Shown: positions 10,270 to 26,231, numbered from the stretch's first letter. The stretch is DNA of 64,000 nucleotides from an uncultured Chloroflexia bacterium (GCA_963734995.1 CAVTJD010000004.1:23910-87909); one strand, 5' to 3'. Numbers and translations: made by a program. The notes: generated from the letters alone by a model not told the origin.

Positions 10270-10956
10270 ATGTCGCATCGTTTCGCCATCGCCCTCGTCT
10301 CCGTCCTCGCCGCCGGGATGGTCGCGGCCTGCGCCGGCGCGCCCCCGGCGCCCTCGAGCGGAGCGCCCGCCCCAACCCCCGGCCTGACGCCGCCAGCCCC
10401 GGCTACGCCTGACGTCAGCGAAGCCACCAGCGCGGAGCCGACCGCGACACGTTCTCCCGATGGCCCCGACGCCGGCAACGTCGAGGAACGGCCCCTCGGC
10501 CCCGAGCTGTCGGTCGAATCGGTGAACGCGACGACCATCCGCGCCACGATCGAGGATCGAGATGCGAAGGCGTGGCGGATCGTTGTCTCGGGGAGCGGGG
10601 TGCTCGCCAACGATCGGCTCGAGGTCGTGGTCGAGACCGGGGACGTGGCACCGCTGATCACCGCCACCGAGGTTCGCGACGGGAAGGTCGTGAGCGTCAT
10701 CGACCTGTCCGAGTTCGGGGATCCGACGGCCGCCGCCGGTGGGTGCCACGCGACGCTCGGCGTCTGCATCGACTCCGACGGCTTCAGCTTGCCGAGCGAC
10801 GGAGACGGCACTCTCGTCGTCGAGCTGCACCGGCTGGACGGCGCATCGCTGCTGTCCGTCGCCGGCGGGACGGCGAGCTGGCCAGGCGAGCCGTTCATCC
10901 TGGGGCCCTGGACCGACACCGACGCCTTCCCCTGGGATCCCGGCGTCTCCTTCTAG
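10270..10956 (+). CDS. hypothetical secreted lipoprotein
   Basis: Signal peptide with lipobox MSHRFAIALVSVLAAGMVAACAG; no recognisable catalytic motifs. Confidence 0.5.
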   Translation: MSHRFAIALVSVLAAGMVAACAGAPPAPSSGAPAPTPGLTPPAPATPDVSEATSAEPTATRSPDGPDAGNVEERPLGPELSVESVNATTIRATIEDRDAKAWRIVVSGSGVLANDRLEVVVETGDVAPLITATEVRDGKVVSVIDLSEFGDPTAAAGGCHATLGVCIDSDGFSLPSDGDGTLVVELHRLDGASLLSVAGGTASWPGEPFILGPWTDTDAFPWDPGVSF

Positions 10957-12989: not shown

Positions 12990-13074
12990 TGGTGGGCCGG
13001 GGCAGAATCGAACTGCCACAGCCGAAGGCGAGGGTTTTACAGACCCTTGGGCTCACCACCTGCCCAACCGACCC
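12990..13074 (-). tRNA. tRNA-Tyr (anticodon GTA), long variable arm
   Basis: Reverse complement folds as GGGTCGG acceptor / D arm / anticodon loop CTGTAAA / long variable arm / GGCAG-TTCGATT-CTGCC T arm / CCA end. Confidence 0.85.
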
Positions 13075-13163: not shown

Positions 13164-13239
<76 letters not shown>

Positions 13240-13366: not shown

Positions 13367-13395
13367 CTTGACGAATAGAACATATGTTCTATTAT
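13367..13395 (+). promoter_or_regulatory. sigma-70-like promoter (TTGACG-17-TATTAT) with embedded LexA (Cheo-type) box TAGAACATATGTTCTA
   Basis: Perfect 16-bp palindrome AGAAC-N4-GTTCT matching Gram-positive LexA consensus CGAACRNRYGTTCG, sited between -35 and -10, immediately upstream of imuA'. Confidence 0.75.
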
Positions 13396-13405
13396 GGGAC
13401 GTCCG

Positions 13406-14635
13406 ATGGCCCGATCATCCGACGTATCCGAAGCGCTCTCGAGGCTCCAGGCACGCTGGGGACCGGCAGCCCTCCGACGGGGCGGAGAGATGGGTCTGGC
13501 GGTCGAAGGCGCCCTCGCTCGAGCACCGATGCCGGCCGAGTCCGCGGCGGACGAGGCGATGGTGCCGGCCACCATGCCGATCACGCCTGTGCGCGTCAGG
13601 CCCGGGCGTCGGACCGAGGAGCCCGATGGCCGGGTCATCTCGACCGGGTTCGCCGCGCTGGATGCCCTGCTCGGGCCGGGCGGGCTTCCGCGTTCGGCCA
13701 CCGTGGCGTTCCGTGGGGGTGCCTCGTCGGGCAAGACCACGGTGGCGTTGCGGGTGGTTGCCGAGGCGCAGGCAACCGGAGCGATCGTCGCCTGGCTGGA
13801 TCTCGCCCGTGCCTTCGATGCGGTGGAGGCGGTCTCCCGTGGCGTCCGCCTGGAGTGGCTCGTCGTGCTCACCCCGGTCGATCTCGAGGAGGGGCTGTCG
13901 CTGGCCGCGGCGTTGCTCGCTGCCCGGACGGTCGACCTGCTGGTCATGGATCTTCCGGATGGACGGGCCACGTCGCTCGCAGGGTCGCGAGTGGGCGATC
14001 GCCCGGCCCGGCTGGCGGCGCTGGCCAGGCGGGCCGGCGCGCTGCTCCTGCTGGTGGAGCCAAGCACCGTGGGTGCCGATCTCGGCGCTGCGCTCCGGGA
14101 GGCGAGCGGGCTGCGACTGGAGCTGACGCAGCTGGGCTGGATCCGGCTCGGCCGGGACGTGGTCGGACGGCGTAGCGCGGTGACGGTGGCCAGAGACAGG
14201 CACGGTCCACCGGGCCGTCGTGCCGAGCTCGAGATCCTGTACGCGGAGGGCGGCGACCGGGATGCGTGCCTGATGCGAGACGAGCTGCTCGATGGCCGGC
14301 CATCGGGCGTCCCGCCGGGGATCGCCGCCATCTCCCCACCGTTCTCCGACCTGAAAGGCCCCCCTCCATCGGCCGATACCCATGCGTCTGCTCCACCTGG
14401 TCTGGCCGCACCTCCCGCTCCGTCTCGCCCGATCCCGTCTCGAGTCCCAGGACGCCAACGGCACCTCCACCTCGTGGCCACCCGGCCCGGTCGTCCTCGG
14501 TGGGCAACCCTGGACGGAGGGGATGGTGGTCGACGCAGATCCGCTCGCCAGGGCGCTCGGTGTGCGTCGCGGGATCCCTCTCGGGGACGCCCACCGGCTC
14601 GCGCCCGAGGCGACCTTCCTCAACCTCGCGCCTGA
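13406..14635 (+). CDS. imuA: ImuA' (RecA-fold/SulA-like mutasome component)
   Basis: RecA-like P-loop region FRGGASSGKTTVALRVVAEAQATGAIVAWLDLARAFD; LexA-box promoter; followed by imuB. Start set at the second ATG (13406), which gives a near-leaderless transcript; the first ATG (13394) overlaps the -10 hexamer. Confidence 0.7.
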   Translation: MARSSDVSEALSRLQARWGPAALRRGGEMGLAVEGALARAPMPAESAADEAMVPATMPITPVRVRPGRRTEEPDGRVISTGFAALDALLGPGGLPRSATVAFRGGASSGKTTVALRVVAEAQATGAIVAWLDLARAFDAVEAVSRGVRLEWLVVLTPVDLEEGLSLAAALLAARTVDLLVMDLPDGRATSLAGSRVGDRPARLAALARRAGALLLLVEPSTVGADLGAALREASGLRLELTQLGWIRLGRDVVGRRSAVTVARDRHGPPGRRAELEILYAEGGDRDACLMRDELLDGRPSGVPPGIAAISPPFSDLKGPPPSADTHASAPPGLAAPPAPSRPIPSRVPGRQRHLHLVATRPGRPRWATLDGGDGGRRRSARQGARCASRDPSRGRPPARARGDLPQPRA

Positions 14636-15674
14636 CGCGGATCGGGACGCCGTCGAAGCCGCCTGCGAGCGGCTGGTTGCGTTCAGCCCGGGGATCGTCG
14701 GGACGAGTGATGTCAGCGACCCGAGCTACGGGCGGATCGGGGTTCAGATCGATGGGCTGACCCGCCTGTGGGGAGTCGAGGAGACGCTCGTTGCCAGGAT
14801 GGCCGAGGCGCTGGCACCGATCCTGCCCGGCCCACCCCGGGCGGGGATCGCCGGGACCGGCTTCGCCGCGAGCGTGGCCGCTGCCCATGCGCGCGAGGGG
14901 GACCGGCCGATCCTCGTACCACCCGGTGATGACGGTCGCTACCTCGCTCCGTTCCCGGCCCGTCTCCTGACCCGGGATCCAGACGTTCGGGCCAGGCTCG
15001 CCAGGTTCGGGCTGCGGACGATCGGCTCGGTGGCGGCCCTGCCTCGGTCCGCCCTGGTCGCGCGTTTCGGCGACGAAGGTGCCCGGCTGCATGCGCGTGC
15101 CACGGGCGAGGAGACCGAGCGGTTCCGGCCCCGTCGTGCCGCCGAGCGGATGGCGCTCGCCCTGCCCCTCGAGCCACCGGTAGCAGGCCTCGAGGCGGTG
15201 CGGTTCGTGCTTCGCCGGCTCGCGGCGACGCTTTCGGATCAGCTGCGAGCTCGAGGTCGGGCGGCGGCAATGGCCCGACTCGTCGTCACCTGTGACCTCG
15301 CTTTCGCGCGTGCCGGGACGCCGGCCGAGGTTCGCGTCGAGCATCGTCTCCCGGAGGCGACGGCGGATGCCGAGGCCATCGAGCGTCTGCTGTTTGCCAG
15401 GCTGGAGCGGACACCACCGCCGGCGCCGGTCACACGCCTGGAGCTGGAGCTCGGCATGGTCGAGCCGGCATCAGGGCAACAGCTGTCGCTGTTCACGCCA
15501 CAGGCGGCACGAGGCGCCCGGCTGGGCTGGCAGCTCGCCCGCCTGGCGATCGTATTCGGGGCTGACCGGGTGCATCGGGTGGAGCTGGCCGATCCCGAGG
15601 CCATCGTCACCGAGGCTCGTTGGCGCTGGGTGCCGGTCTCGGGTGCGGTGGCCGGGGAGGAAGACCAGGCATGA
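14382..15674 (+). CDS. imuB: ImuB (catalytically inactive Y-family polymerase-like mutasome scaffold)
   Basis: N-terminus MRLLHLVWPHLPL and VVDADPLARALGVRRGIPLGDAHRLAPEATFL match DinB/ImuB family; lacks obvious catalytic acidic triad context; downstream of imuA'. Confidence 0.75.
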   Translation: MRLLHLVWPHLPLRLARSRLESQDANGTSTSWPPGPVVLGGQPWTEGMVVDADPLARALGVRRGIPLGDAHRLAPEATFLNLAPDADRDAVEAACERLVAFSPGIVGTSDVSDPSYGRIGVQIDGLTRLWGVEETLVARMAEALAPILPGPPRAGIAGTGFAASVAAAHAREGDRPILVPPGDDGRYLAPFPARLLTRDPDVRARLARFGLRTIGSVAALPRSALVARFGDEGARLHARATGEETERFRPRRAAERMALALPLEPPVAGLEAVRFVLRRLAATLSDQLRARGRAAAMARLVVTCDLAFARAGTPAEVRVEHRLPEATADAEAIERLLFARLERTPPPAPVTRLELELGMVEPASGQQLSLFTPQAARGARLGWQLARLAIVFGADRVHRVELADPEAIVTEARWRWVPVSGAVAGEEDQA

Positions 15675-15919
15675 CGCGGTTCCTGCGTGAGCATCCGGCG
15701 ATCGAACCCGAGCTGGATGACCGTGGCCGGCTGATCGCGATCCGCTGGAATGGCCGCCGTGAGCCGGTCGAGGTGTGCAACCGCTGGCGGGTCGATGAGT
15801 CCTGGTGGCGGCAGCCGATCGCGCGCGACTACTTCAAGGTCGTGGGCCAGAGCTGGCTCGCGCTCGTGTATCTGGATCGGGTGGCCGGGACATGGCACCT
15901 GGAGCGGTTCTACGACTGA
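15671..15919 (+). CDS. small Trp-rich hypothetical protein translationally coupled to imuB
   Basis: ATGA overlap with imuB stop; 82 aa, 6 Trp (IRWNGRR, NRWRVDESWWRQ, GTWHLERFYD); no known motif recognised. Confidence 0.5.
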   Translation: MTRFLREHPAIEPELDDRGRLIAIRWNGRREPVEVCNRWRVDESWWRQPIARDYFKVVGQSWLALVYLDRVAGTWHLERFYD

Positions 15920-16074
15920 GCGGCGGCCGCGCACGGATCCGCTTGTCGGGCGAACCTCGCGGGGATCCGGCATGTCCAGCCGCGATCGATGGCGGCGACC
16001 GGTCGGATGTCTGGCGGCACCTGGCGCAGGCGACGCTCAGCCTTGGCTGAGCCGGAGCGAACCTCGATCACCCG

Positions 16075-16182
16075 TCAACGCGTGACAGGTTGGCCGAGCG
16101 CGATCGACGTGACGAGCAGGACCAGGAACAGGCCCACCAACAGGAACAGTGCGTCCAGGTCACGAGGCCGAGTCGTCTGCAT
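16075..16182 (-). CDS. small single-TM hydrophobic peptide (35 aa)
   Basis: MQTTRPRDLDALFLLVGLFLVLLVTSIALGQPVTR; paralogous to peptide at 16355..16453. Confidence 0.35.
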   Translation of the reverse strand: MQTTRPRDLDALFLLVGLFLVLLVTSIALGQPVTR

Positions 16183-16354
16183 CGCCGGTGCGTCCCCCAT
16201 CTCCATGACCGGTCCCGGCCGGTCGCCGGCAGCATAGACGTCCAAGCCGGATCCTGTGTTGCGCTCGCGTCAACATCCCGTTGCGTGGCCGCAGCGCCGT
16301 CACACCCGATGTCATCGGGGCAGGTTTCGCGGCGAAGCCGGCGCGAGGCGGACG

Positions 16355-16453
16355 TCAGCCCGGAAGAGCGGCCACCACGAGCAGGACGAGGAGCACGAGC
16401 AGGGCGGCGACCAGCAGGCCAGCCCCGATCACGTCGCGCCGCGTCAATTCCAT
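16355..16453 (-). CDS. small single-TM hydrophobic peptide (32 aa)
   Basis: MELTRRDVIGAGLLVAALLVLLVLLVVAALPG; shares M-x-(T)-TR-(P)RD-[LV] N-terminus and Leu/Val TM core with 16075..16182. Confidence 0.35.
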   Translation of the reverse strand: MELTRRDVIGAGLLVAALLVLLVLLVVAALPG

Positions 16454-16474
16454 CGTCTGAGATCTCCTTGGTCG

Positions 16475-17068
16475 CTAGCCGCCGGCTCCGGCGCAACCGG
16501 CACCGTACAGCACCGTGATCATCGTCGATTCGCCCATCGGGCGGAAGGTCAGCTGGATCCGGCATTCGGGAACATCGCTTTGCGTATCCAGCACCCGGCT
16601 GCCGTCCTCGAGCGGATCCGAGAGGTCGACCGAGCTGTATCCCGCCGCCTCGAGTGCATCCCGGTACCAGGCCGCGACATCATCCACCGATTGCGAGGTC
16701 AGCAACGCATCGCTGACCGGTTCGGCCGGCGGCTCGGCGGGCTCTGCGCCCGGAAGCCGTGGGAAGCTGTCGGGGACCGCATCGAGGATTGCGCCCCAGT
16801 CCGTCTGCGTGACGGGGATACGTGTGGCGGGTGGTCCAGGTGCCGTCGATACGCCCCCGGGCACGGCCGTCGGCTCGGGAGCCAAGCTGCGGGCGTCGGA
16901 CGGGGTCACCGATGGGCCTGCCGCGGTGGTCGGGATCGGCCGCGCCGTGGTGGCATCGGAGCCACAGGCGCCAACCGTGATCGCGAGTGCTGCCGCGAGC
17001 ACCACGACCGAGAGGGACCGGGGAGATCGCCAGCAGATCGATCGCAGAACTCGTGTCACGCTCGCCAT
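16475..17068 (-). CDS. hypothetical secreted lipoprotein (Pro/Thr/Ala-rich)
   Basis: Signal peptide + lipobox MASVTRVLRS...VVVLAAALAITVGACGS; C-terminal globular segment DWGAILDAVPDSF...YRDALEAAGY. Confidence 0.5.
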   Translation of the reverse strand: MASVTRVLRSICWRSPRSLSVVVLAAALAITVGACGSDATTARPIPTTAAGPSVTPSDARSLAPEPTAVPGGVSTAPGPPATRIPVTQTDWGAILDAVPDSFPRLPGAEPAEPPAEPVSDALLTSQSVDDVAAWYRDALEAAGYSSVDLSDPLEDGSRVLDTQSDVPECRIQLTFRPMGESTMITVLYGAGCAGAGG

Positions 17069-17215
17069 CGTAACCGGCGCCGGATGGAGCACGGTGAACG
17101 GCTCTCGTGTCCCCGGCCTGCCCAGGGTCCGGGAAAGGTCGACGGGCGCCATCGCAACGCCGTCGCCATCAGGTCCGCCCCGGCGACGTCCACGTCGGCC
17201 GGAACGGTGGTGTCG

Positions 17216-17353
17216 TCACACAGCGGCTTCGACCATCGCCGGCAGCAGGACCAGGACCAGGCCCATGACGAGCGCGATGGCGACCACCCGCAGCAGGAGA
17301 TCGACGAGGATGCGGCGCGAGGGTCGTCGGACCGGGTCGGCAATCACGCGCAT
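17216..17353 (-). CDS. small single-TM hydrophobic peptide (45 aa)
   Basis: MRVIADPVRRPSRRILVDLLLRVVAIALVMGLVLVLLPAMVEAAV; third member of the small-peptide set; divergent from dnaE2. Confidence 0.3.
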   Translation of the reverse strand: MRVIADPVRRPSRRILVDLLLRVVAIALVMGLVLVLLPAMVEAAV

Positions 17354-17424
17354 TCAGACGCATGGGCGACGGGTTTGGTTGCGTGCCGCGGCGGCGATTT
17401 CGACCAGTGGCCGGCGTTCCGAAT

Positions 17425-17438
17425 CGAACGGATGTTCT
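17425..17438 (+). promoter_or_regulatory. LexA (Cheo-type) box CGAACGGATGTTCT upstream of dnaE2
   Basis: Matches CGAACRNRYGTTYC exactly; lies between TTCCGA (-35-like) and TACACT (-10-like); same half-sites as imuA' box. Confidence 0.7.
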
Positions 17439-17470
17439 ACACTCGGTGTCACCGTTCGGAGAGACCGATC

Positions 17471-20400
17471 GTGGCCGGACCCGCCTACGCCGAGCTGCAC
17501 TGCCACAGCCACTTCTCGTTCCTGGATGGAGCGTCGTCGCCGGCTGATCTCGTGGCTCGGGCAGCGGAGCTGGGTCTGAGCGGGCTGGCGATCACCGATC
17601 ACCAGGGCCTGTACGGAGCGGTGCGGTTCTCGATGGCGGCCGACGCCGCGGGCATCCGACCTGTGATCGGGATCGAGATCGAGCTCCAGGATCCGGTCGT
17701 GCCGGATGCTGCCGGCATCGTGATCCCGGCGCGCCGAGCGTGGCGACCCGGACGGCGGGTCTCCGTGGAGGCCGCCGGATCGCGGGCCATCGACGGGCGC
17801 CCGGATCGGCCCCGTCCCGAGCGTGCGCGACTTCCCGGTCATCGTGCGGTGGTCAAGGAGGACCAGCGCGGGGTGGGCGAGACAGGGCGTGACCCGCATC
17901 TGGTGCTGCTGGCCCGTGACGCAACCGGCTGGCGGAGCCTGTGCCGCCTCGTGTCGCGGGCGAACCTGGCCGGCACGAAGGGCGTCCCTCGGTTCACCCA
18001 GGCGCTGCTTGCCGAGCACACGGAGGGGCTGATCGCGCTGTCGGGCTGCCGGCACGGGGAGCTGGCGCGCCGGCTCCGAGCCGGCGACCGATCCGGGGCC
18101 AGGGCCGCCGCCGAGCGGTACGCGCGACTGTTCGCTGATGGATCGGGTGCGGGTGGCGACACGGCTGCCCGGTGCGGCTTCTTCGTGGAGCTCTCGCACC
18201 ACCTGCTCCCGGACGACGACTGGCTGGTGTCGGAGGCGGCCCGTCTCGCCGACGAGCTGGGCCTGCCGGTCGTGGTGACCAACGACGCCCACTACGCGCT
18301 GCCGGCGGACCGTGAGCTCCAGGACGTGCTGACCGCCATCCGTCACGGGCGAGCGGTGGAGCAGCTGCGAGACCTCCGCCGACCCGACGGTGAGTCGTAC
18401 CTCAAGTCCGGCGCCGAGCTGCTGGCGATGCCGCCCGGGGAGCCCGCAACGGCAGCCGTGGATTCGGTCGCTGCCCGGGCCTGGCGCGAAGGCGTCGCCG
18501 CCTCGGTCGAGATCGCAGCCGCCTGCCGGGTGGATCTCGTGTTCGAGCGCTACCGGTTCCCCGGGTTCGAGGTGCCGGCCGGCGAGACGCCGTTCAGCCA
18601 TCTGTCCGAGCTGTGCTGGGAAGGGGCTCGCCGTCGCTATCACCCGCTGACGCCGGCCGTGGTGCGGCAGCTCGCTCACGAGCTGGACGTGATCGAGAAG
18701 ACCGGCCTTGCCGAGTTCTTTCTGATCTGCTGGGACCTGATGCGGTTCGCGAGGTCGCGCGGGATCCCGGCCCAGGGACGCGGCAGCGCTGCGGACTCGA
18801 TCGTGGCCTACGTGCTGGGGATCACGCGGGTCGACCCCATCCGGCACGAGCTGCTGTTCGAGCGGTTCATCAACGAGGGCCGGACCGCATACCCGGACGT
18901 GGACATCGACTTCAGCTCCGCGCGGCGGGAGGAGGTGATCCAGTACGTCTACCAGCGCTACGGCACCGAGCACACGGGGATGGTCTGCAACCTCGTCACG
19001 TACCGGGCACGGTCGGCGGTGCGCGAGGTGGGCTACGCGCTCGGGTTCCCGCGACCGCTGGTCGACCGCGTCGCCAAGGCGCTCGAGACGTACGACTCGG
19101 TGATGGTCCGCCGGGACCTCGAGGCCGAAGGCGGCTTCGCCCAGTTCTTCGCACGACCGGGCGAGGCACCGGGCGATGGCGTGGCAGGCGGGGAGCGGCG
19201 ACTGGCCGCCGAGACGACCGTGACCGGTGCGGCATCGCTGGCCGGTGCCCGTGGTCTGACCGATGCGATGGGCCAGCTCAACCACGAGCGTGGCGGGCAC
19301 TACCGGGGCGGTGAACGCCAGGAGGCTCCGCCCGTCGCCGGTACTCGGTCTGCCGACCGTACTCCGCCCGCCGCCGGAACACGGCCCGCTGATCGTGCCG
19401 GGCATCGGGCCCGCGCCTGGGCACCGAGCGAGGATGAGGGCGGCCCCGGCGATTCCCCGGTGAGCGAACGCTGGATCCGCGAGGGGCCACCAACGCGGAC
19501 GCTCGAACGACGGCGGGACGCCCGCGCCGCCATGGACCGCGAGGTCGCCCACCGGCTGGATCCCGAGAGCGGCGTGTTGCTGCCAGCTGACCGCCGGTTC
19601 GATGCGCGTCCGGCGGGGTACAGCAGCGTGGCGCGCGTGGAGCCGCTCCCCGCACCGGACCGCAGCCGTCATCGAGGCTCGGTGGCCCATCTTTCGGACT
19701 GGGAACGCTGGCTCGAGCTGTGCGCCCGGATCGACGGCTTCCCGCGCCATCTCTCCATCCACTCCGGCGGGATGCTCGTCACCGCCGCCCCGCTCATCGA
19801 CATCGTTCCCATCGAGCGCGCGACGATGAAGGACCGTGTCGTCGTTCAGTACGACAAGCGCGACGTCGAGACGATGAAGCTGATCAAGCTCGACCTGCTC
19901 GGTCTGGGCATGCTGGCCGCCATCGACGAGACGCTCCGGCTCATCGAGCACGACTGCGCGACGTGTGTCGATCTCGACCGGATCCCCGAGGAGATCCCCG
20001 AGGTGTTCGAGATGCTCCAGGCCGCCGACACGGTCGGCGTGTTCCAGGTCGAAAGCCGGGCCCAGATGCAGACGTTGCCCAAGTCGAGGCCCCGCAACCT
20101 CGACGACCTCGTGGTGGAGGTGGCGATCATCAGGCCCGGGCCGATCCAGGGCAACGCCGTCCATCCCTACCTGCGGCGCAAGCAGGGCCTCGAGCCCGTG
20201 AGCTATCTCCATCCCAGCCTCGAGCCGATCCTCCACGACAGCCTGGGCGTGATCCTGTACCAGGAGCAGGTGATGAAGATCGCGATCGACGTCGCGGGCT
20301 TCACGCCGGCGGGCTCTGACGCGTTCCGGCGCGCGATGGGCACCTGGCGCTCCACGCACGAGATGGAGAAGCTTCACGCCCAGTTCGTCGAGGGCTGCGT

Positions 20401-21679
20401 CCGCGTCCAGGACATGGCGCGCGACGATGCCGAGGAGCTGTTTCGCCAGTGCGCGGCGTTCGCCAGCTTCGGCTTCGCGAAGAGTCACGCCGCCGCGTTC
20501 GCCCGGACGGCGTACGAGTCGAGCTTCCTCAAGCTGTTCTATCCGGCCCAGTTCGTGATCGGGCTGATCAACGCTCAGCCGATGGGCTTCTACCCGGTCG
20601 AGGTGCTGGTCAACGACGCGAAGCGTCACGGCGTGGCCGTGCTTCCGGTGGACATCAGCCGGAGCTCCTGGCGAACCACCACCGAGTGGGTCGGGCGACC
20701 GGGCTGGGCGCTGGCCGGGGCAGCAGGCGATGCGGGGTTGCGCGACGGTGACGAGGGCGAGCCGCTGCCCGAGGGGTGTGGGATCGAGGACCGGCCGGCG
20801 CCGGTGCGCTCGAGCGCGTGCGTGCTCCCCAGGACCGCCGCCCGGGAGCGCTGGGCGGCGGAGGGCGTGACCGGCTGGGGCGTCAGGCTGGGTCTGCACC
20901 TGGTCAAGGGGATCGGCGAGGAGCGACAGGCGAGGCTCGATACGGAGCTGGCGCGCGGGCCGTACACGTCGCTGGCCGATGTGGTGGAGCGAACGGGCCT
21001 GCCGGAGGAGGTCGTCGAGCGATTGGTCCGGGCGGGGGCGCTGGATTCGCTGGGGCGGCCGAGAAGGGAGCTGCTGTGGCAGCTGCGTGAGGTCGCGGGG
21101 GCGACGAAGGGACGCCTGGACGGGCGGACCGTGCGTGGGGCCGGGGCCGCCGCTCGCCGTGCGGCGGGGCGCCCGATGGACCTGCGCCTGCCGGCCACCG
21201 AGGCCCCGCCACTCCCCGGGGTCACGGAGTCGGAACGGCTGGGCGATGCCTACGCGGTGATGGGGCTCGATGCACGCCGGCAGGCCGTTGGCCTGTTCCG
21301 CGGCGCGCTCGATCGGCTGGGAGCGGTGACCAACGCGGCACTGTCGGATCGGCAACCCGGGTCGGTTCGGATCGGCGGGCTGGTCGTGACGAGGCAGCAT
21401 CCGATGACGGCGCGGGGCACGGTGTTTCTGGCGCTCGAGGACGAGACCGGGATGGTCAACGTCACCCTGTGGCCGGACGCCTGGCAGCGGCTCCGATCAG
21501 TGGTTCGGCGTCACGCTCTGTTGCTGGTTGACGGGGATCTTCAGCGGGAGGCGAACGTGATCAATGTCGTGGCGCGCTCGGTGACCCCGTTGATCGAGGC
21601 GGCCGGGACAGCCGGCGGACCCACCTCGCCCGTCGGCGTGAAGGCGATCGGACAGGCCGGGTTGCGGCGGCTCGGCTAG
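17471..21679 (+). CDS. dnaE2: error-prone DNA polymerase DnaE2 (ImuC) with large low-complexity insertions
   Basis: PHP domain YAELHCHSHFSFLDGAS...ITDHQGLYG; polymerase core FPRHLSIHSGGMLVT, QVESRAQM; GTG start preceded by GGAGAG; the upstream ATG at 17432 lies inside the LexA box. Confidence 0.8.
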   Translation: MAGPAYAELHCHSHFSFLDGASSPADLVARAAELGLSGLAITDHQGLYGAVRFSMAADAAGIRPVIGIEIELQDPVVPDAAGIVIPARRAWRPGRRVSVEAAGSRAIDGRPDRPRPERARLPGHRAVVKEDQRGVGETGRDPHLVLLARDATGWRSLCRLVSRANLAGTKGVPRFTQALLAEHTEGLIALSGCRHGELARRLRAGDRSGARAAAERYARLFADGSGAGGDTAARCGFFVELSHHLLPDDDWLVSEAARLADELGLPVVVTNDAHYALPADRELQDVLTAIRHGRAVEQLRDLRRPDGESYLKSGAELLAMPPGEPATAAVDSVAARAWREGVAASVEIAAACRVDLVFERYRFPGFEVPAGETPFSHLSELCWEGARRRYHPLTPAVVRQLAHELDVIEKTGLAEFFLICWDLMRFARSRGIPAQGRGSAADSIVAYVLGITRVDPIRHELLFERFINEGRTAYPDVDIDFSSARREEVIQYVYQRYGTEHTGMVCNLVTYRARSAVREVGYALGFPRPLVDRVAKALETYDSVMVRRDLEAEGGFAQFFARPGEAPGDGVAGGERRLAAETTVTGAASLAGARGLTDAMGQLNHERGGHYRGGERQEAPPVAGTRSADRTPPAAGTRPADRAGHRARAWAPSEDEGGPGDSPVSERWIREGPPTRTLERRRDARAAMDREVAHRLDPESGVLLPADRRFDARPAGYSSVARVEPLPAPDRSRHRGSVAHLSDWERWLELCARIDGFPRHLSIHSGGMLVTAAPLIDIVPIERATMKDRVVVQYDKRDVETMKLIKLDLLGLGMLAAIDETLRLIEHDCATCVDLDRIPEEIPEVFEMLQAADTVGVFQVESRAQMQTLPKSRPRNLDDLVVEVAIIRPGPIQGNAVHPYLRRKQGLEPVSYLHPSLEPILHDSLGVILYQEQVMKIAIDVAGFTPAGSDAFRRAMGTWRSTHEMEKLHAQFVEGCVRVQDMARDDAEELFRQCAAFASFGFAKSHAAAFARTAYESSFLKLFYPAQFVIGLINAQPMGFYPVEVLVNDAKRHGVAVLPVDISRSSWRTTTEWVGRPGWALAGAAGDAGLRDGDEGEPLPEGCGIEDRPAPVRSSACVLPRTAARERWAAEGVTGWGVRLGLHLVKGIGEERQARLDTELARGPYTSLADVVERTGLPEEVVERLVRAGALDSLGRPRRELLWQLREVAGATKGRLDGRTVRGAGAAARRAAGRPMDLRLPATEAPPLPGVTESERLGDAYAVMGLDARRQAVGLFRGALDRLGAVTNAALSDRQPGSVRIGGLVVTRQHPMTARGTVFLALEDETGMVNVTLWPDAWQRLRSVVRRHALLLVDGDLQREANVINVVARSVTPLIEAAGTAGGPTSPVGVKAIGQAGLRRLG

Positions 21680-22640: not shown

Positions 22641-25600
22641 ATGAGCCATGCCCGGATCGCGGCGGCGGCCGCGATGTCACTCGTCCTGCTCATGGCGTCG
22701 AGCGCGGTGGCGACGCCCGACACGCCGCTCACGACGGTCGAGCCCGCCTCCGTGGTCGACTGGCCGGTATCGACTGGGCTCCTGGTGGCCGAGGTCGTCA
22801 CGGGGGGCGCATCCGCATCTGACGAATATGTGGAGCTGACCAACGCGTCGACGGAGCCACTCGACCTGCTGGGGCTGGAGGTGGTGTACGTCACCGCGAC
22901 CGGCTCGACGGTCACGCGCAAGGCGGTCTGGGACAGCTCGCTCATGGTGGGACCGGGAAGACACCTGCTGTTGGCGAACGCGTCGGGCATGTTCGCCGCG
23001 GCCGCCGACGCGACGTACTCGGGCGGGTTTGCCGCCACCGGTGGGGCGATCGTGCTCCGATCCGTGGGCGGAGCCCCGATCGACGCCGTCGGCTGGGGAA
23101 CCGCCGCGAACGCGTTCGTCGAAGGGGCCGCCGCTCCCGCTCCCGACCCGGGAAGCTCCATCGAGCGCCGACCGGGCGGCACGGCGGGCAACACGATCGA
23201 CAGCAACGACAATGCGGCTGACTTCATCGCCAATCCCGAGCCGGAGGGTCGCAACCTGGCGGCCGACCCGCAGCCGCAACCCACGCCGACGCCGACACCG
23301 TCCCCGGCGCCTTCGGCAACCCTGACCCCATCGCCATCGCCGTCGCTCACGCCCGCGCCGACCGCCACGCCCGCGCCGTCGCTCACGCCCACGCCGACCG
23401 CGACCGCCACGCCGGCGCCAACCGAGTCGGTGTCCCCGTCCCCCAGCGCAACACCGTCGCCGACACCGCATCCCTCACCAACTCCGGCACCCACGGCGTC
23501 GCCGTCGCTCACGCCTGAGCCGTCGAGTGTTCCGTCGCCCAGCCCGGCTCCCACGCCCACCCCGGCGTCGGTCACCGCCATCTCTGTTGCGCGCGGTCTC
23601 GCCGACGGGTCGGACGCGACCATCCAGGGTGTCCTGACCACGTCGCTCGGAGCCCTCGAATCGGGCCGCGCCGGCTTCGTCCAGGACGCGACCGGCGGGA
23701 TCGCCCTCTACCTCGACGCGCCGTTCTCGAGCCCGATCGAGGAGGGAGCCATCGTCACGGCCTCCGGAACGGTCGGCAGCCGCTACGGCCAGCGCACGCT
23801 CCGCGTGACGACGACGTCGGTCGTCGTCGTCGGGACGGCCGAGCTTCCGGCTGCGGTCATGGTCGCGACGGGGTCCGCGACCGAACCTCTGGAAGGCCTG
23901 CGGCTCGAGGTGCGCGGAACAGTGACCGATGCGCCCTCGTCTCTCAGCGACGGCGTCGGGCTCAACGTCGATGACGGATCGGGCACGCTCAGGGTCGTCG
24001 TGGCCCCTGACGCGCTCGGCGGGCTCAGCCCGGCGCCGGGCATGATCGTTCGGGCGCAGGGTCCGCTCGGTCAGCGTGACAGCACCGGCTCCGGAACCGC
24101 CGGCTATCGGCTCTATGCGACTCTGCCCGGCGAGCTCGAGCTGAGCGCGCCCGAGCCCACACCCACATCGCCCCCATCGCCCTCGCCGTCGCCCGCGGCG
24201 AGCCCGAGCCCAAGCCCCACGCCGACCCCGAGCCCGACCCCCGCGCCAACGCCCGCGCCAACGCCCTCGATCACCCCCACGCCGGCCACGATCCACGCCG
24301 CGCGGACCGAGCCCGTCGGCACCCGGGTGACCGTCCGGGGCGTGGTGATCGCACAGAACGGTCGCCTGGGAACGCCACCCCTGTTCGCGATCGCGGACGC
24401 CACCGGGGGCATCGTTGTCCGGCTGCCTGATGGCGTGCCCGCTGCTGCCCGAGGGACGCTGGTCGAGGTCCGCGGCCCGATCGCCGACCCGTACGGCCAG
24501 ACCGAGCTCCGGCCCGGCGACGACGGCATCACCGTGCTCGGATCGGCCGACCTCCCGTCGCCGCTGGTGCTCGAGGCAGGCGGCGCCGGCGAGGACACCG
24601 AGGGACGTCTCGCGACGATCCACGGTGCCATCGCCACCTCGGCGACCCGCGCCACGAGCGGCGATCTCACGTTCACGATCACCGGTGACGACGGGGTCAC
24701 GCTCACGATCCGCGCGGACGCGTCTGCCGGCCTCGACAAGGCGACGTTCCGGAAAGGGCTCGATGGCACCTTCACGGGCGTGATCGGCCAGCGAGCGTCG
24801 CGCAAGGGAAGGCTCGACGGCTATCGGCTGTGGCTCCGCGACGCTCACGACGTCGAGCTGGCGTCGGCACCCGCGCCGTCCGACACGTCTCCGTCACCGT
24901 CGCCATCGTCGACGGATTCGGCGGCTGTCTCCACCGTCGCGGCCGCGCGGATCCGGGAGGGTCACAGGGTCACGGTCGAGGGTGTCCTGACGGTCGACCG
25001 AACGCTGCTCGACGCGACCGGCCGGCGGACGATCGTCGAGGACGCCAGCGGAGCGATCGAGGTCTACCTGTCCACGTCCGACGATTCGATCCACGCCGGC
25101 GAGGAGGTGCGGGTGACGGGGGTCGTCGGGCGGGCCTATGGCGCACCGCGCCTGAAGGCCGATGAGATCCGGGTGCTCGGCGCGCGTCAGCCGGCTGCGC
25201 ACGTGCTTCGCGGCCGGCCGAGCGCCGCGAACGAGTGGGACCTGGTCCGCGTCAGCGGAACGATCACCGATGTTCATCGCGACGGAGATCGATGGCTGGC
25301 CGAGCTCGACATCGGGGGCGGGAAGCTGCTCGTCCAGGGCCTCCCGGGAAGCTCGATCCCGTCGACGGCCGTGATCGAGGGCCGTCCGGCAACGATCACC
25401 GGGATCGTGAAACGACCCTATCCGACGGCAACCGACCGCCGCTTCTCCATTGTTCCGCGCGGACCGTCGGACATCGCTCTTGGACCAGCCGGACCGGGCA
25501 CCGGGGCCGCCGCGGGTGGCTCGTCAGTCGCCGGCGCGCCACAGGCGGTCCTCGCGATGGGCGGCGACCTGGCGCAGGCCGGTGCTCCCGACGTCGATCT

Positions 25601-26231
25601 GCGTGACCTGGCCAGCTACCTCGGCAAGCACGTTCGGGTCGGTGGGTTGGTCACCCGGAGCGCCACCGACGGGTTCGACCTCGATGATGGCACGGCGACC
25701 CGACGGGTCGTGCTGACGGGTTCGGCGATGGAGCTCGCCGGCTCCCTCGTGCCCGGCGATGCCCTCAACGCGACCGGCGTGCCGGAGTCGAGGCAGGGAA
25801 TCGTGCTGGTGGTCGGGGACGCATCGTCCATCGAGCTGGCCGGGGACTTGGGTGGCGGCTCGGCGATCGACGAGGGAGGGTCTCCAGGCGCGACGGCGGA
25901 CATGGTCACTGCCGGTGGCGCATCGGGCACGGCCGTCAGCACGGCGGCGGTCGGCAACGTTGCGTCCACGCCGATGGCGGCCATGGTCGGTGGCGCGCTG
26001 CTGCTGATCGTCATGACGTCGCTGGGCATGACGGCGGCATACCGACGCCGCGCGGAGCGACGCCTCCGCGCCCGGATCTCGGACCGTCTGGCGACAGTGG
26101 TGCGCGGCACGGCAGGGACCGACCAGGTCGCCGCTCCGGCGCCCACGGCGGTGGCATCGGCCGACGAAACCGCGCCGGCCGGCCACGGAGGGGTCGGTCT
26201 GCAGGCGCAGATCAATCGTGAATTTGCTTGA
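22641..26231 (+). CDS. large surface-anchored protein: signal peptide, Lamin-tail domain, Pro/Thr linkers, four OB-fold (tRNA_anti-like) repeats, C-terminal TM anchor
   Basis: Signal peptide [24 protein letters not shown]; LTD-like block [16 protein letters not shown]...AVGWG; four modules with OB pattern ([28 protein letters not shown]; [20 protein letters not shown]; etc.); TM helix [22 protein letters not shown] followed by RRRAERRLR. Confidence 0.7.

Follow-up and report, generated by a model that had tools for sequence, protein, structure and literature searches.

Two perfect GAAC-N4-GTTC palindromes in a 64,000-nt stretch of DNA from an uncultured Chloroflexia bacterium (GCA_963734995.1 CAVTJD010000004.1:23910-87909; hereafter the window, with positions counted from its first letter) raise the question of whether a dnaE2 polymerase gene and a group of genes lying upstream of it belong to one SOS mutagenesis system, which proteins such a system would contain, and how it came to be divided. 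Our analysis indicates that the locus is very probably the SOS mutasome of a Candidatus Limnocylindria (Chloroflexota) genome, with two LexA-repressible promoters at which LexA binding is predicted. The cassette has a G+C content of about 70% and runs in the order imuA-like, imuB, imuB-C and then dnaE2 behind its own LexA box. Unit 1 comprises the imuA-like gene, imuB and imuB-C (13406-15919), and unit 2 is dnaE2 (17471-21679). The dnaE2 start lies 1.8 kb past the imuB stop codon and 1551 bp past that of imuB-C (15919). A preliminary description of this DNA had recognized a LexA-box-controlled imu/dnaE2 locus in two transcription units; the boxes and the predicted gene identities agree with this, and both operators are conserved across the clade. 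That description counted three cassette genes, and lacked the fourth, the separate 82-aa imuB-C (15671-15919), as well as the 254-nt overlap of the imuA-like gene with imuB.

The evidence for joint regulation comes from the promoters. GAAC-N4-GTTC is the LexA box core of Gram-positive bacteria and reportedly, according to Fernandez de Henestrosa et al. 2002, also the LexA box of Dehalococcoides, a member of the Chloroflexota. A search for further sites, as had been suggested, returned exactly two in the window (13378-13389 and 17426-17437), both at the cassette. Given that ∼0.49 sites are expected and that at least two were found in 6 of 100 shuffles, the count by itself is weak and not significant, and the case for the operators therefore rests on their position and conservation. 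The perfect sites lie 12-45 nt upstream of the RecA-like gene and dnaE2, box 2 being 45 nt before the dnaE2 start. Operator 1 (TAGAACATATGTTCTA, 13376-13391) is a 16-bp palindrome with a Cheo-type core. It fills the spacer of the unit 1 promoter (13368-13395, + strand; -35 TTGACG, 16-nt spacer, -10 TATTAT) and abuts the -10 hexamer. This promoter, which matches at 10 of 12 positions, is the only strong sigma-70-like candidate between 13200 and 17600. Operator 2 (TCGAACGGATGTTCTA, 17424-17439) is fused to a -10-like TACACT (17438-17443), such that the whole element spans 17424-17443 on the + strand. Both sites are thus palindromes with the GAAC-N4-GTTC core that overlap the promoter of an SOS gene.

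Conservation was assessed in related genomes. A one-genome-per-species scan identified 446 genomes with this ImuB-C, all of them Chloroflexota metagenome-assembled genomes (MAGs) named Limnocylindria or Limnocylindrales. From this set 80 loci were fetched, and box counts cover the loci that reach the relevant gene starts. A perfect box was present upstream of the imuA-like gene in 67 of 67 loci and upstream of dnaE2 in 70 of 70, and only ∼6 stray boxes occurred in ∼1.1 Mb of flanking DNA. The consensus of the 67 loci upstream of the imuA-like gene is cTTGAC-N4/5-GAAC-N4-GTTC-TAT.AT. Downstream of box 2, the dnaE2 leader of the relatives is usually C-rich, with GGAGA as the ribosome-binding site. 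In the 67-locus consensus the imuA-like ATG stands 10 nt past the -10 hexamer, and the leader would therefore be very short or absent; an alternative in-frame ATG at 13394 lies inside the -10 hexamer itself.

The stretch between the -10 hexamer and this ATG (13396-13408) is strongly conserved in the 67 loci as tGGACGTCCGATG, with the palindrome GGACGTCC inside it. In three loci (L001, L029 and L049), dnaE2 is preceded by a start context like it, GTCCGATG. The conserved tGGACGTCCGATG region may be a leaderless-start mark or a second regulatory site. ARAGORN also reported two tRNAs on the - strand, an 85-nt tRNA-Glu (17409-17493) lying across box 2 and the start of dnaE2 and an 87-nt tRNA-Gly (10418-10504). 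Both fall below the Rfam tRNA threshold and are probably false positives.

The first gene of the cassette (13406-14635, + strand) encodes 409 residues from the ATG at 13406. Its product is RecA-like by Pfam (RecA, 94.9 bits) and fails the curated models, reaching 102 bits against a cut-off of 325 for TIGR02012 and 28.5 bits against a cut-off of 150 for NCBIfam ImuA_translesion, with no match to NF058630, the ImuA' model built on Rv3395c. When compared with solved RecA structures, the protein aligned to RecA residues 30-277, with loops L1 and L2 deleted and the C-terminal domain missing; its RecA core ends near residue 290. The P-loop is kept across 121 family members (Lys in 83, Arg in 37). 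By contrast, the position of RecA E96 is Ala in 120 of the 121, Q194 is replaced by Pro, and K248 and K250 are replaced by Arg. A RecA recombinase would be expected to pass the curated model and to possess E96, Q194, both loops and the C-terminal domain, and none of these was found. Because the catalytic Glu, Q194, the DNA-binding loops and the C-terminal domain are lost and the P-loop and protomer-interface arginines are kept, the protein would be an adaptor rather than a recombinase. Judged from these substitutions, it is an inactivated, degenerate RecA paralogue in the ImuA position, predicted to be neither a recombinase nor an actinobacterial ImuA'. The label imuA' in the preliminary description therefore has to be given up. 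The protein lies outside the curated ImuA and ImuA' families, and its fold and operon position fit an ImuA analogue. In public records, its relatives are named RecA/RadA recombinase.

The Pro/Arg/Ala-rich tail of the imuA-like protein varies across loci, and its coding sequence enters imuB by 254 nt (14382-14635). The imuA-like frame extends past the imuB start by 113-317 nt in about 60 loci (nearly all), and its phase relative to imuB is constant. A second coding layer was considered for the overlap and rejected: the third-position entropy of imuB is 0.93 inside the overlap versus 1.10 outside it, and positions 1 and 2 are also lower. The overlap is treated as a tolerated run-on in a stop-poor frame of a gene with 72% G+C. 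Programmed frameshifting, which might have yielded ImuA-ImuB and ImuB-ImuB-C fusions, was likewise rejected; neither junction has a slippery site, and fused forms occur only as rare locus variants. One such form is the 704-aa database protein P0424, an in-frame ImuA-ImuB fusion that is either natural or assembly-derived. Gene callers shorten imuB at this overlap, and the ImuB of the window is recorded as a 383-aa protein (P0390).

The second gene, imuB (14382-15674, + strand), encodes a 430-aa N-terminal part of ImuB with Pfam IMS and IMS_C domains and without the ImuB-C domain. Alignment with Escherichia coli Pol IV showed that D103 is replaced by Gly and E104 by Arg, and the N-terminus (MRLLHLVWPHLPL), which lies outside this alignment, has no acidic residue at the expected place of D8. 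A clamp-binding motif, QLSLF, is followed directly by a RecA-N-terminal-like motif (LGWQLARLAIVFGADRV) of the kind described for Y-family tails (PMC6511836), and both are kept in 41 aligned ImuB orthologues. The best NCBIfam matches are Pol IV models, at 65 bits at most versus cut-offs of 256-389, and the Joint Genome Institute label of its relatives is "protein ImuB". A Y-family fold that has lost the catalytic carboxylates and carries a β-clamp-binding motif is what defines an ImuB, and the product is predicted to be a catalytically dead Y-family protein. In homology searches, then, the open reading frame at 14382 bore out its assignment as ImuB, and that at 13406 gave a degenerate RecA paralogue outside both curated families, ImuA and ImuA'.

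In the canonical cassette, the ImuB-C domain is part of the ImuB polypeptide. Here, imuB stops at 15674 and the domain is present in trans, encoded by an 82-aa open reading frame (15671-15919, + strand) whose ATG overlaps the imuB TGA (ATGA). A total of 447 close homologues were found; the best 120 of the 447 are 77-88% identical, mostly 82 aa long and unnamed. A profile search of 1.84 billion representatives returned 531 relatives, the majority being standalone and 80-86 aa long. In some cases the profile matched the C-terminal part of a 500-540-aa IMS+IMS_C protein and in one case that of a RecA-domain protein; distant members match Pfam DUF6504. Given this transitive link of the family to DUF6504 and Y-family C-termini, the 82-aa product is, on sequence grounds, the ImuB C-terminal domain. 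The ATGA junction is kept in nearly all loci. An in-frame fusion of imuB to imuB-C was observed in only three (L014, L018 and L019; 515-551 aa) and is natural or assembly-derived. An AlphaFold2 model of ImuB-C is all-β, with a mean predicted local distance difference test score (pLDDT) of 91; no solved structural relative was found (best E value 1.4), nor any sequence match in the PDB.

A different joining of the same modules occurs at L087:8001-9116, where a 371-aa protein (P0247) has a RecA-like domain at its N-terminus and an ImuB-C-like region at its C-terminus. Its gene adjoins a β-clamp gene and phage- or plasmid-like genes, and a GAAC-N4-GTTC box lies 114 nt upstream. Four further distant ImuB-C proteins (P0140, P0148, P0154 and P0168) are on short contigs that are uninformative for gene context.

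The product of dnaE2 (imuC; 17471-21679, + strand, GTG start) is a 1402-aa error-prone C-family polymerase. It passes the curated error-prone-polymerase model NCBIfam NF004225 (1063 bits against a cut-off of 939), in agreement with the earlier identification, and contains Pfam PHP, DNA_pol3_alpha, finger, HHH_6 and OB domains together with the catalytic motifs PDVDIDF and KLDLLG, as expected for DnaE2/ImuC. The protein is ∼300-350 aa longer than the matched curated profiles of roughly 1050 positions, and lengths across the clade range from 1321 to 1579 aa (median 1446). Inserts occur in the PHP, palm and HhH regions (about residues 75-135, 551-750 and 1080-1125), those in the PHP and palm domains being lineage-specific. 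The palm insert is of low complexity and clade-variable, with a conserved island at residues 651-675.

The arrangement of these genes can be accommodated by the following working model. A LexA dimer on each palindrome would block RNA polymerase at the -10 hexamer and spacer; the positions are observed, and the binding is predicted. Cleavage of LexA, stimulated by RecA after DNA damage, would release both units together, as expected from the LexA control of imuABC cassettes, including split configurations with their own SOS boxes (PMC3901139). The dead ImuB would then dock on the β clamp via QLSLF and would bind the RecA-like ImuA, or RecA itself, via the RecA-N-terminal-like motif. ImuB-C, made as a separate 82-aa subunit by translational coupling at ATGA, would recruit DnaE2, which would carry out error-prone bypass synthesis. 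The roles assigned here to the clamp motif, the RecA-N-terminal-like motif and ImuB-C follow published work (PMC6511836).

How the two units came apart was approached by comparing loci. In the 80 fetched loci, wherever the contig reaches, the order is invariant: box, imuA-like, imuB, imuB-C, minus-strand genes, box, dnaE2. L001 and L002 have other upstream neighbors of the cassette, which therefore has no fixed place in the chromosome. Between the imuB-C stop and the start of dnaE2 there were 491-3645 bp in 53 scored relatives and 12-4311 nt in the set used for an ImuB tree. A metagenome scan with distant ImuB-C sequences recovered many loci of lower G+C content in which RecA-like, imuB, imuB-C and dnaE2 genes are contiguous, with gaps of 0-13 nt. 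In several of these outgroup loci, a lone GAAC-N4-GTTC box precedes the first gene; L086, L096, L114, L116, L122 and L139 are among the contiguous, single-box, four-gene outgroups. Two loci belong to the clade of the window itself (ImuB-C 77% identical). In L159 the genes are contiguous, with a 12-nt gap and one box, and in L164 a 137-nt gap consists only of a LexA box fused to TATACT, that is, a box plus promoter.

In a simple neighbor-joining ImuB tree, drawn without support values and with the contiguous outgroups as root, L159 and L164 take the basal positions. The spacer lengthens along this tree from 12 and 137 nt in the basal loci to ∼500 nt and then 0.6-3 kb; the ImuB subclade of the window has spacers of 1.3-1.6 kb, and another subclade has spacers of 2-4.3 kb. 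Ancestrally, the four genes would thus have formed an operon with a single LexA box. A gap between imuB-C and dnaE2 would have opened in the Limnocylindria and gained its own LexA-box promoter, and genes for small membrane peptides and a lipoprotein would then have filled it on the minus strand. The proposal that an ancestral operon had been split by insertion is upheld by the contiguous single-box loci and by the growth of the spacer, with a refinement of its timing. The "inserted" spacer genes are themselves conserved, and the split is not a recent insertion; the sequence comparison supports an old, clade-wide event in which a second LexA promoter arises as soon as a gap exists.

As previously described, the two boxed units are parted by ∼1.5 kb that carries minus-strand open reading frames for micro-peptides and a lipoprotein, and the families of these genes recur in relatives. 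The lipoprotein-like gene occupies 16475-17152 (- strand; likely start ATG 17068, lipobox ITVGAC), and relatives detected with tblastn (35-73% identity) are found at the same place in most loci. Three micro-peptides of the single-pass membrane type, also encoded on the - strand, surround it: mp1 (16075-16182, 35 aa, MQTTRPRDLDALFLLVGLFLVLLVTSIALGQPVTR), with an RPRD..AL motif and a hydrophobic helix; mp2 (16355-16453, 32 aa, MELTRRDVIGAGLLVAALLVLLVLLVVAALPG), which recurs in related spacers; and mp3 (17216-17353, 45 aa), which is divergent from dnaE2. Of 69 related loci, 31 have the mp1 family in their spacer, an mp2-like gene is kept even in the minimal spacers of ∼500 bp (L043 and L057), and the mp3 family motif, ..RR....LLLR..AIAL...LLPA..EAA., occurs in many related spacers. 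The two better-scored micro-peptide motifs were found in 31 and 25 of the 69 loci. Across the clade, the families measure 32-55 aa. Neither the micro-peptides nor the lipoprotein matched a Pfam or NCBIfam family.

The DNA upstream of mp1 is conserved and contains TATGCT, a GACCGG..CCGGTC hairpin and a GGGGAAGGGGA site. A perfect palindrome that matches GAAC-N4-GTTC, CGAACGTCCGTTCG, lies just past the mp2 stop codon in four loci (L007:8591, L018:6291, L027:2314 and L039:8605), ∼100 nt upstream of the mp1 promoter-like region; the version in the window is decayed (CAACATCCCGTTG, 16271-16283). A third LexA box serving the micro-peptides was considered on this basis and rejected, since a palindrome present in the spacers of only four loci and decayed in the window is not a conserved operator. 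Searches of related loci also revealed no conserved operator or promoter linking the spacer genes to box 2: the distance from the LexA box to the micro-peptide start codons varies from 58 to 300 nt, and no conserved promoter overlaps the box. SOS-induced small membrane peptides include SidA of Caulobacter and TisB and DinQ of E. coli. The spacer peptides, three short proteins of 32-45 aa that each have one hydrophobic helix and adjoin an SOS operator, resemble these. They differ in showing no sequence relation to them, and their link to the SOS response is a candidate only.

Several observations weigh against the reading of the locus as a LexA-controlled mutasome. The window and the ∼1.7 Mb of fetched loci contain neither lexA nor recA, and with lexA missing there, LexA binding is predicted from the motif only. 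The preliminary description placed both boxes between -35 and -10 hexamers; this holds for box 1 (TTGACG-16-TATTAT) and only in part for box 2, which abuts TACACT and has a weak -35 (GTTCCG/TTCCGA). The imuA-like protein fails the curated ImuA and ImuA' models, and its role was assigned by position and fold. Any attachment of free ImuB-C to ImuB is likewise putative; a single-sequence model of a chimera of the ImuB tail and ImuB-C, built on the idea of strand complementation, reached a pLDDT of only 42 and was uninformative. As regards the history of the split, L159 and L164 may have lost the spacer secondarily instead of being contiguous from the base.

The missing lexA also bears on an improbable alternative in which the palindromes are operators of a non-LexA repressor, TetR-like or Xre-like (cf. 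EppR of Acinetobacter), and the locus stands outside the LexA regulon. A TetR-family gene is located directly upstream of box 1 in L002, and PMC12242105 describes a second, non-LexA repressor of error-prone polymerase genes in Acinetobacter. The core is, however, exactly the Gram-positive LexA box and also stands ahead of imuA-like genes in outgroup loci whose G+C content is very different. The upstream neighbors moreover vary between loci, and therefore no alternative regulator gene is linked to the cassette. A LexA-controlled locus is accordingly preferred, and the question of what its first two genes encode can be put in the same way. That the first is a working second RecA and the Y-family gene an active DinB-like polymerase, within a general repair cluster, is what the public names of the relatives (RecA/RadA recombinase and "DNA polymerase IV") would suggest. 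The intact P-loop and the Pol IV models at the head of the NCBIfam matches point the same way, yet the scores are well under the curated cut-offs (RecA, 102 versus 325; Pol IV, ≤65 versus 256-389). The RecA-like protein has Ala at E96 and Pro at Q194, with L1 and L2 deleted and the C-terminal domain absent, and the Y-family protein has Gly and Arg at Pol IV D103 and E104 and lacks an acidic residue at the D8 place. Tight linkage to ImuB-C and DnaE2 adds to this, and such a repair cluster is considered highly unlikely.

Errors of assembly could in principle mimic both the imuB/imuB-C split and the long imuA-imuB overlap, with a canonical full-length imuB and a shorter imuA as the actual genes. 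Many of the related MAGs are indeed long-read assemblies with obvious frameshifts (15 dnaE2 open reading frames are truncated), imuB and imuB-C are fused in three loci, and one database protein is an ImuA-ImuB fusion. Against this stand the ATGA junction and the ATG or GTG start of the 82-aa gene in ∼60 independent loci from short- and long-read assemblies, also in distant outgroups (L086), the hundreds of standalone ImuB-C proteins of 80-86 aa, and an imuA stop codon that in nearly all loci falls within imuB, 113-317 nt from its start and in a constant relative frame. Little probability is therefore left to an artifact, and the interpretation as a four-gene mutasome locus in two LexA-type units is retained below.

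Split LexA-controlled imuABC cassettes with an SOS box for each unit have already been described, Mycobacterium tuberculosis being the textbook case (PMC3901139). There, as here, imuA'-imuB (Rv3395c-Rv3394c) and dnaE2 (Rv3370c) form two units, each behind a GAAC-N4-GTTC-type SOS box, and a catalytic DnaE2 works with an inactive RecA-fold accessory and a dead Y-family ImuB that has a clamp motif (PMC3901139, PMC6511836 and PMC10421592). Unlike in M. tuberculosis, just 1.55 kb separates the units here, ImuB-C has its own gene, the accessory is much nearer to RecA (95 bits for Pfam RecA) and does not match the Rv3395c model, and DnaE2 exceeds the curated profiles of roughly 1050 positions by ∼300-350 aa. 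The (lexA2-)imuA-imuB-dnaE2/imuC operon of Proteobacteria (Pseudomonas, Caulobacter and Sinorhizobium) is similar in gene order, LexA control and inferred division of labor, and the outgroup and basal relatives have an uninterrupted operon like that of Proteobacteria. The proteobacterial systems differ in their LexA box type, their full-length ImuB and the lack of an internal second promoter, and proteobacterial ImuA passes the ImuA model, whereas the protein here scored 28.5 bits versus the cut-off of 150.

ImuB-C is also known as a standalone protein (PMC6511836). The variants described by Timinskas and Venclovas in 2019, e.g. that of Kyrpidia tusciae, consist of an inactive Y-family polymerase, ImuB-C and DnaE2, and imuA was found neither in these operons nor in their genomes (PMC6511836), RecA being presumed to take its place. 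The present locus shares with them an inactive Y-family polymerase with a RecA-N-terminal-like motif, a free ImuB-C and DnaE2. It departs from them in having a RecA-derived ImuA-like gene at the front of the operon, a feature of this locus, of all Limnocylindria loci and of many outgroup loci from metagenomes. A literature search yielded no paper naming DUF6504 or the combination of a standalone ImuB-C with an ImuA-like protein.

Two genuine tRNA genes, tRNA-Tyr(GTA) (12990-13074) and tRNA-Ala(CGC) (13164-13239), lie on the - strand directly upstream of the imuA promoter. Downstream of the cassette, a 1196-aa open reading frame (22641-26231, + strand) matches a lamin-tail domain and an OB-fold (tRNA_anti-codon), and appears to be unrelated to it.

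The locus represents a known kind of system in a new lineage, with an architecture that is modestly new: a standalone ImuB-C together with an ImuA-like protein, an ImuA close to RecA, a long DnaE2 and a spacer with conserved micro-peptides. The general picture of SOS mutagenesis is unchanged. The finding extends the LexA-controlled ImuA-ImuB-DnaE2 system to the Limnocylindria, a large uncultured class from soil and freshwater with 446 species-level genomes. It also corrects a widespread misannotation in this class, in which the ImuA-like protein is labeled RecA, ImuB is shortened by gene callers and ImuB-C is left hypothetical. ImuB-C can evidently be a separate subunit even alongside an ImuA-like protein, and the fission/fusion series (most loci split; L014, L018 and L019 fused) could be used to map the part of ImuB that binds DnaE2.

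A more far-reaching reading, in which uncultured lineages employ a four-subunit mutasome with a RecA-derived ImuA and a free ImuB-C and the spacer genes also take part in the damage response, is speculative and, taken as a whole, unlikely. If it were true, the users of the four-subunit form would be the Limnocylindria and their metagenomic relatives of lower G+C content, and that form, a combination reported not to occur, would be an intermediate on the way from RecA, a Y-family polymerase and ImuB-C towards the canonical ImuA-ImuB. The spacer peptides, divergent from dnaE2, could then be SidA-like division inhibitors or TisB-like membrane toxins. For the family itself, the growth of the spacer from 12 nt through 137 nt and ∼500 nt to kilobases offers a clean case of operon break-up in which co-regulation would have been kept by a second copy of the operator.

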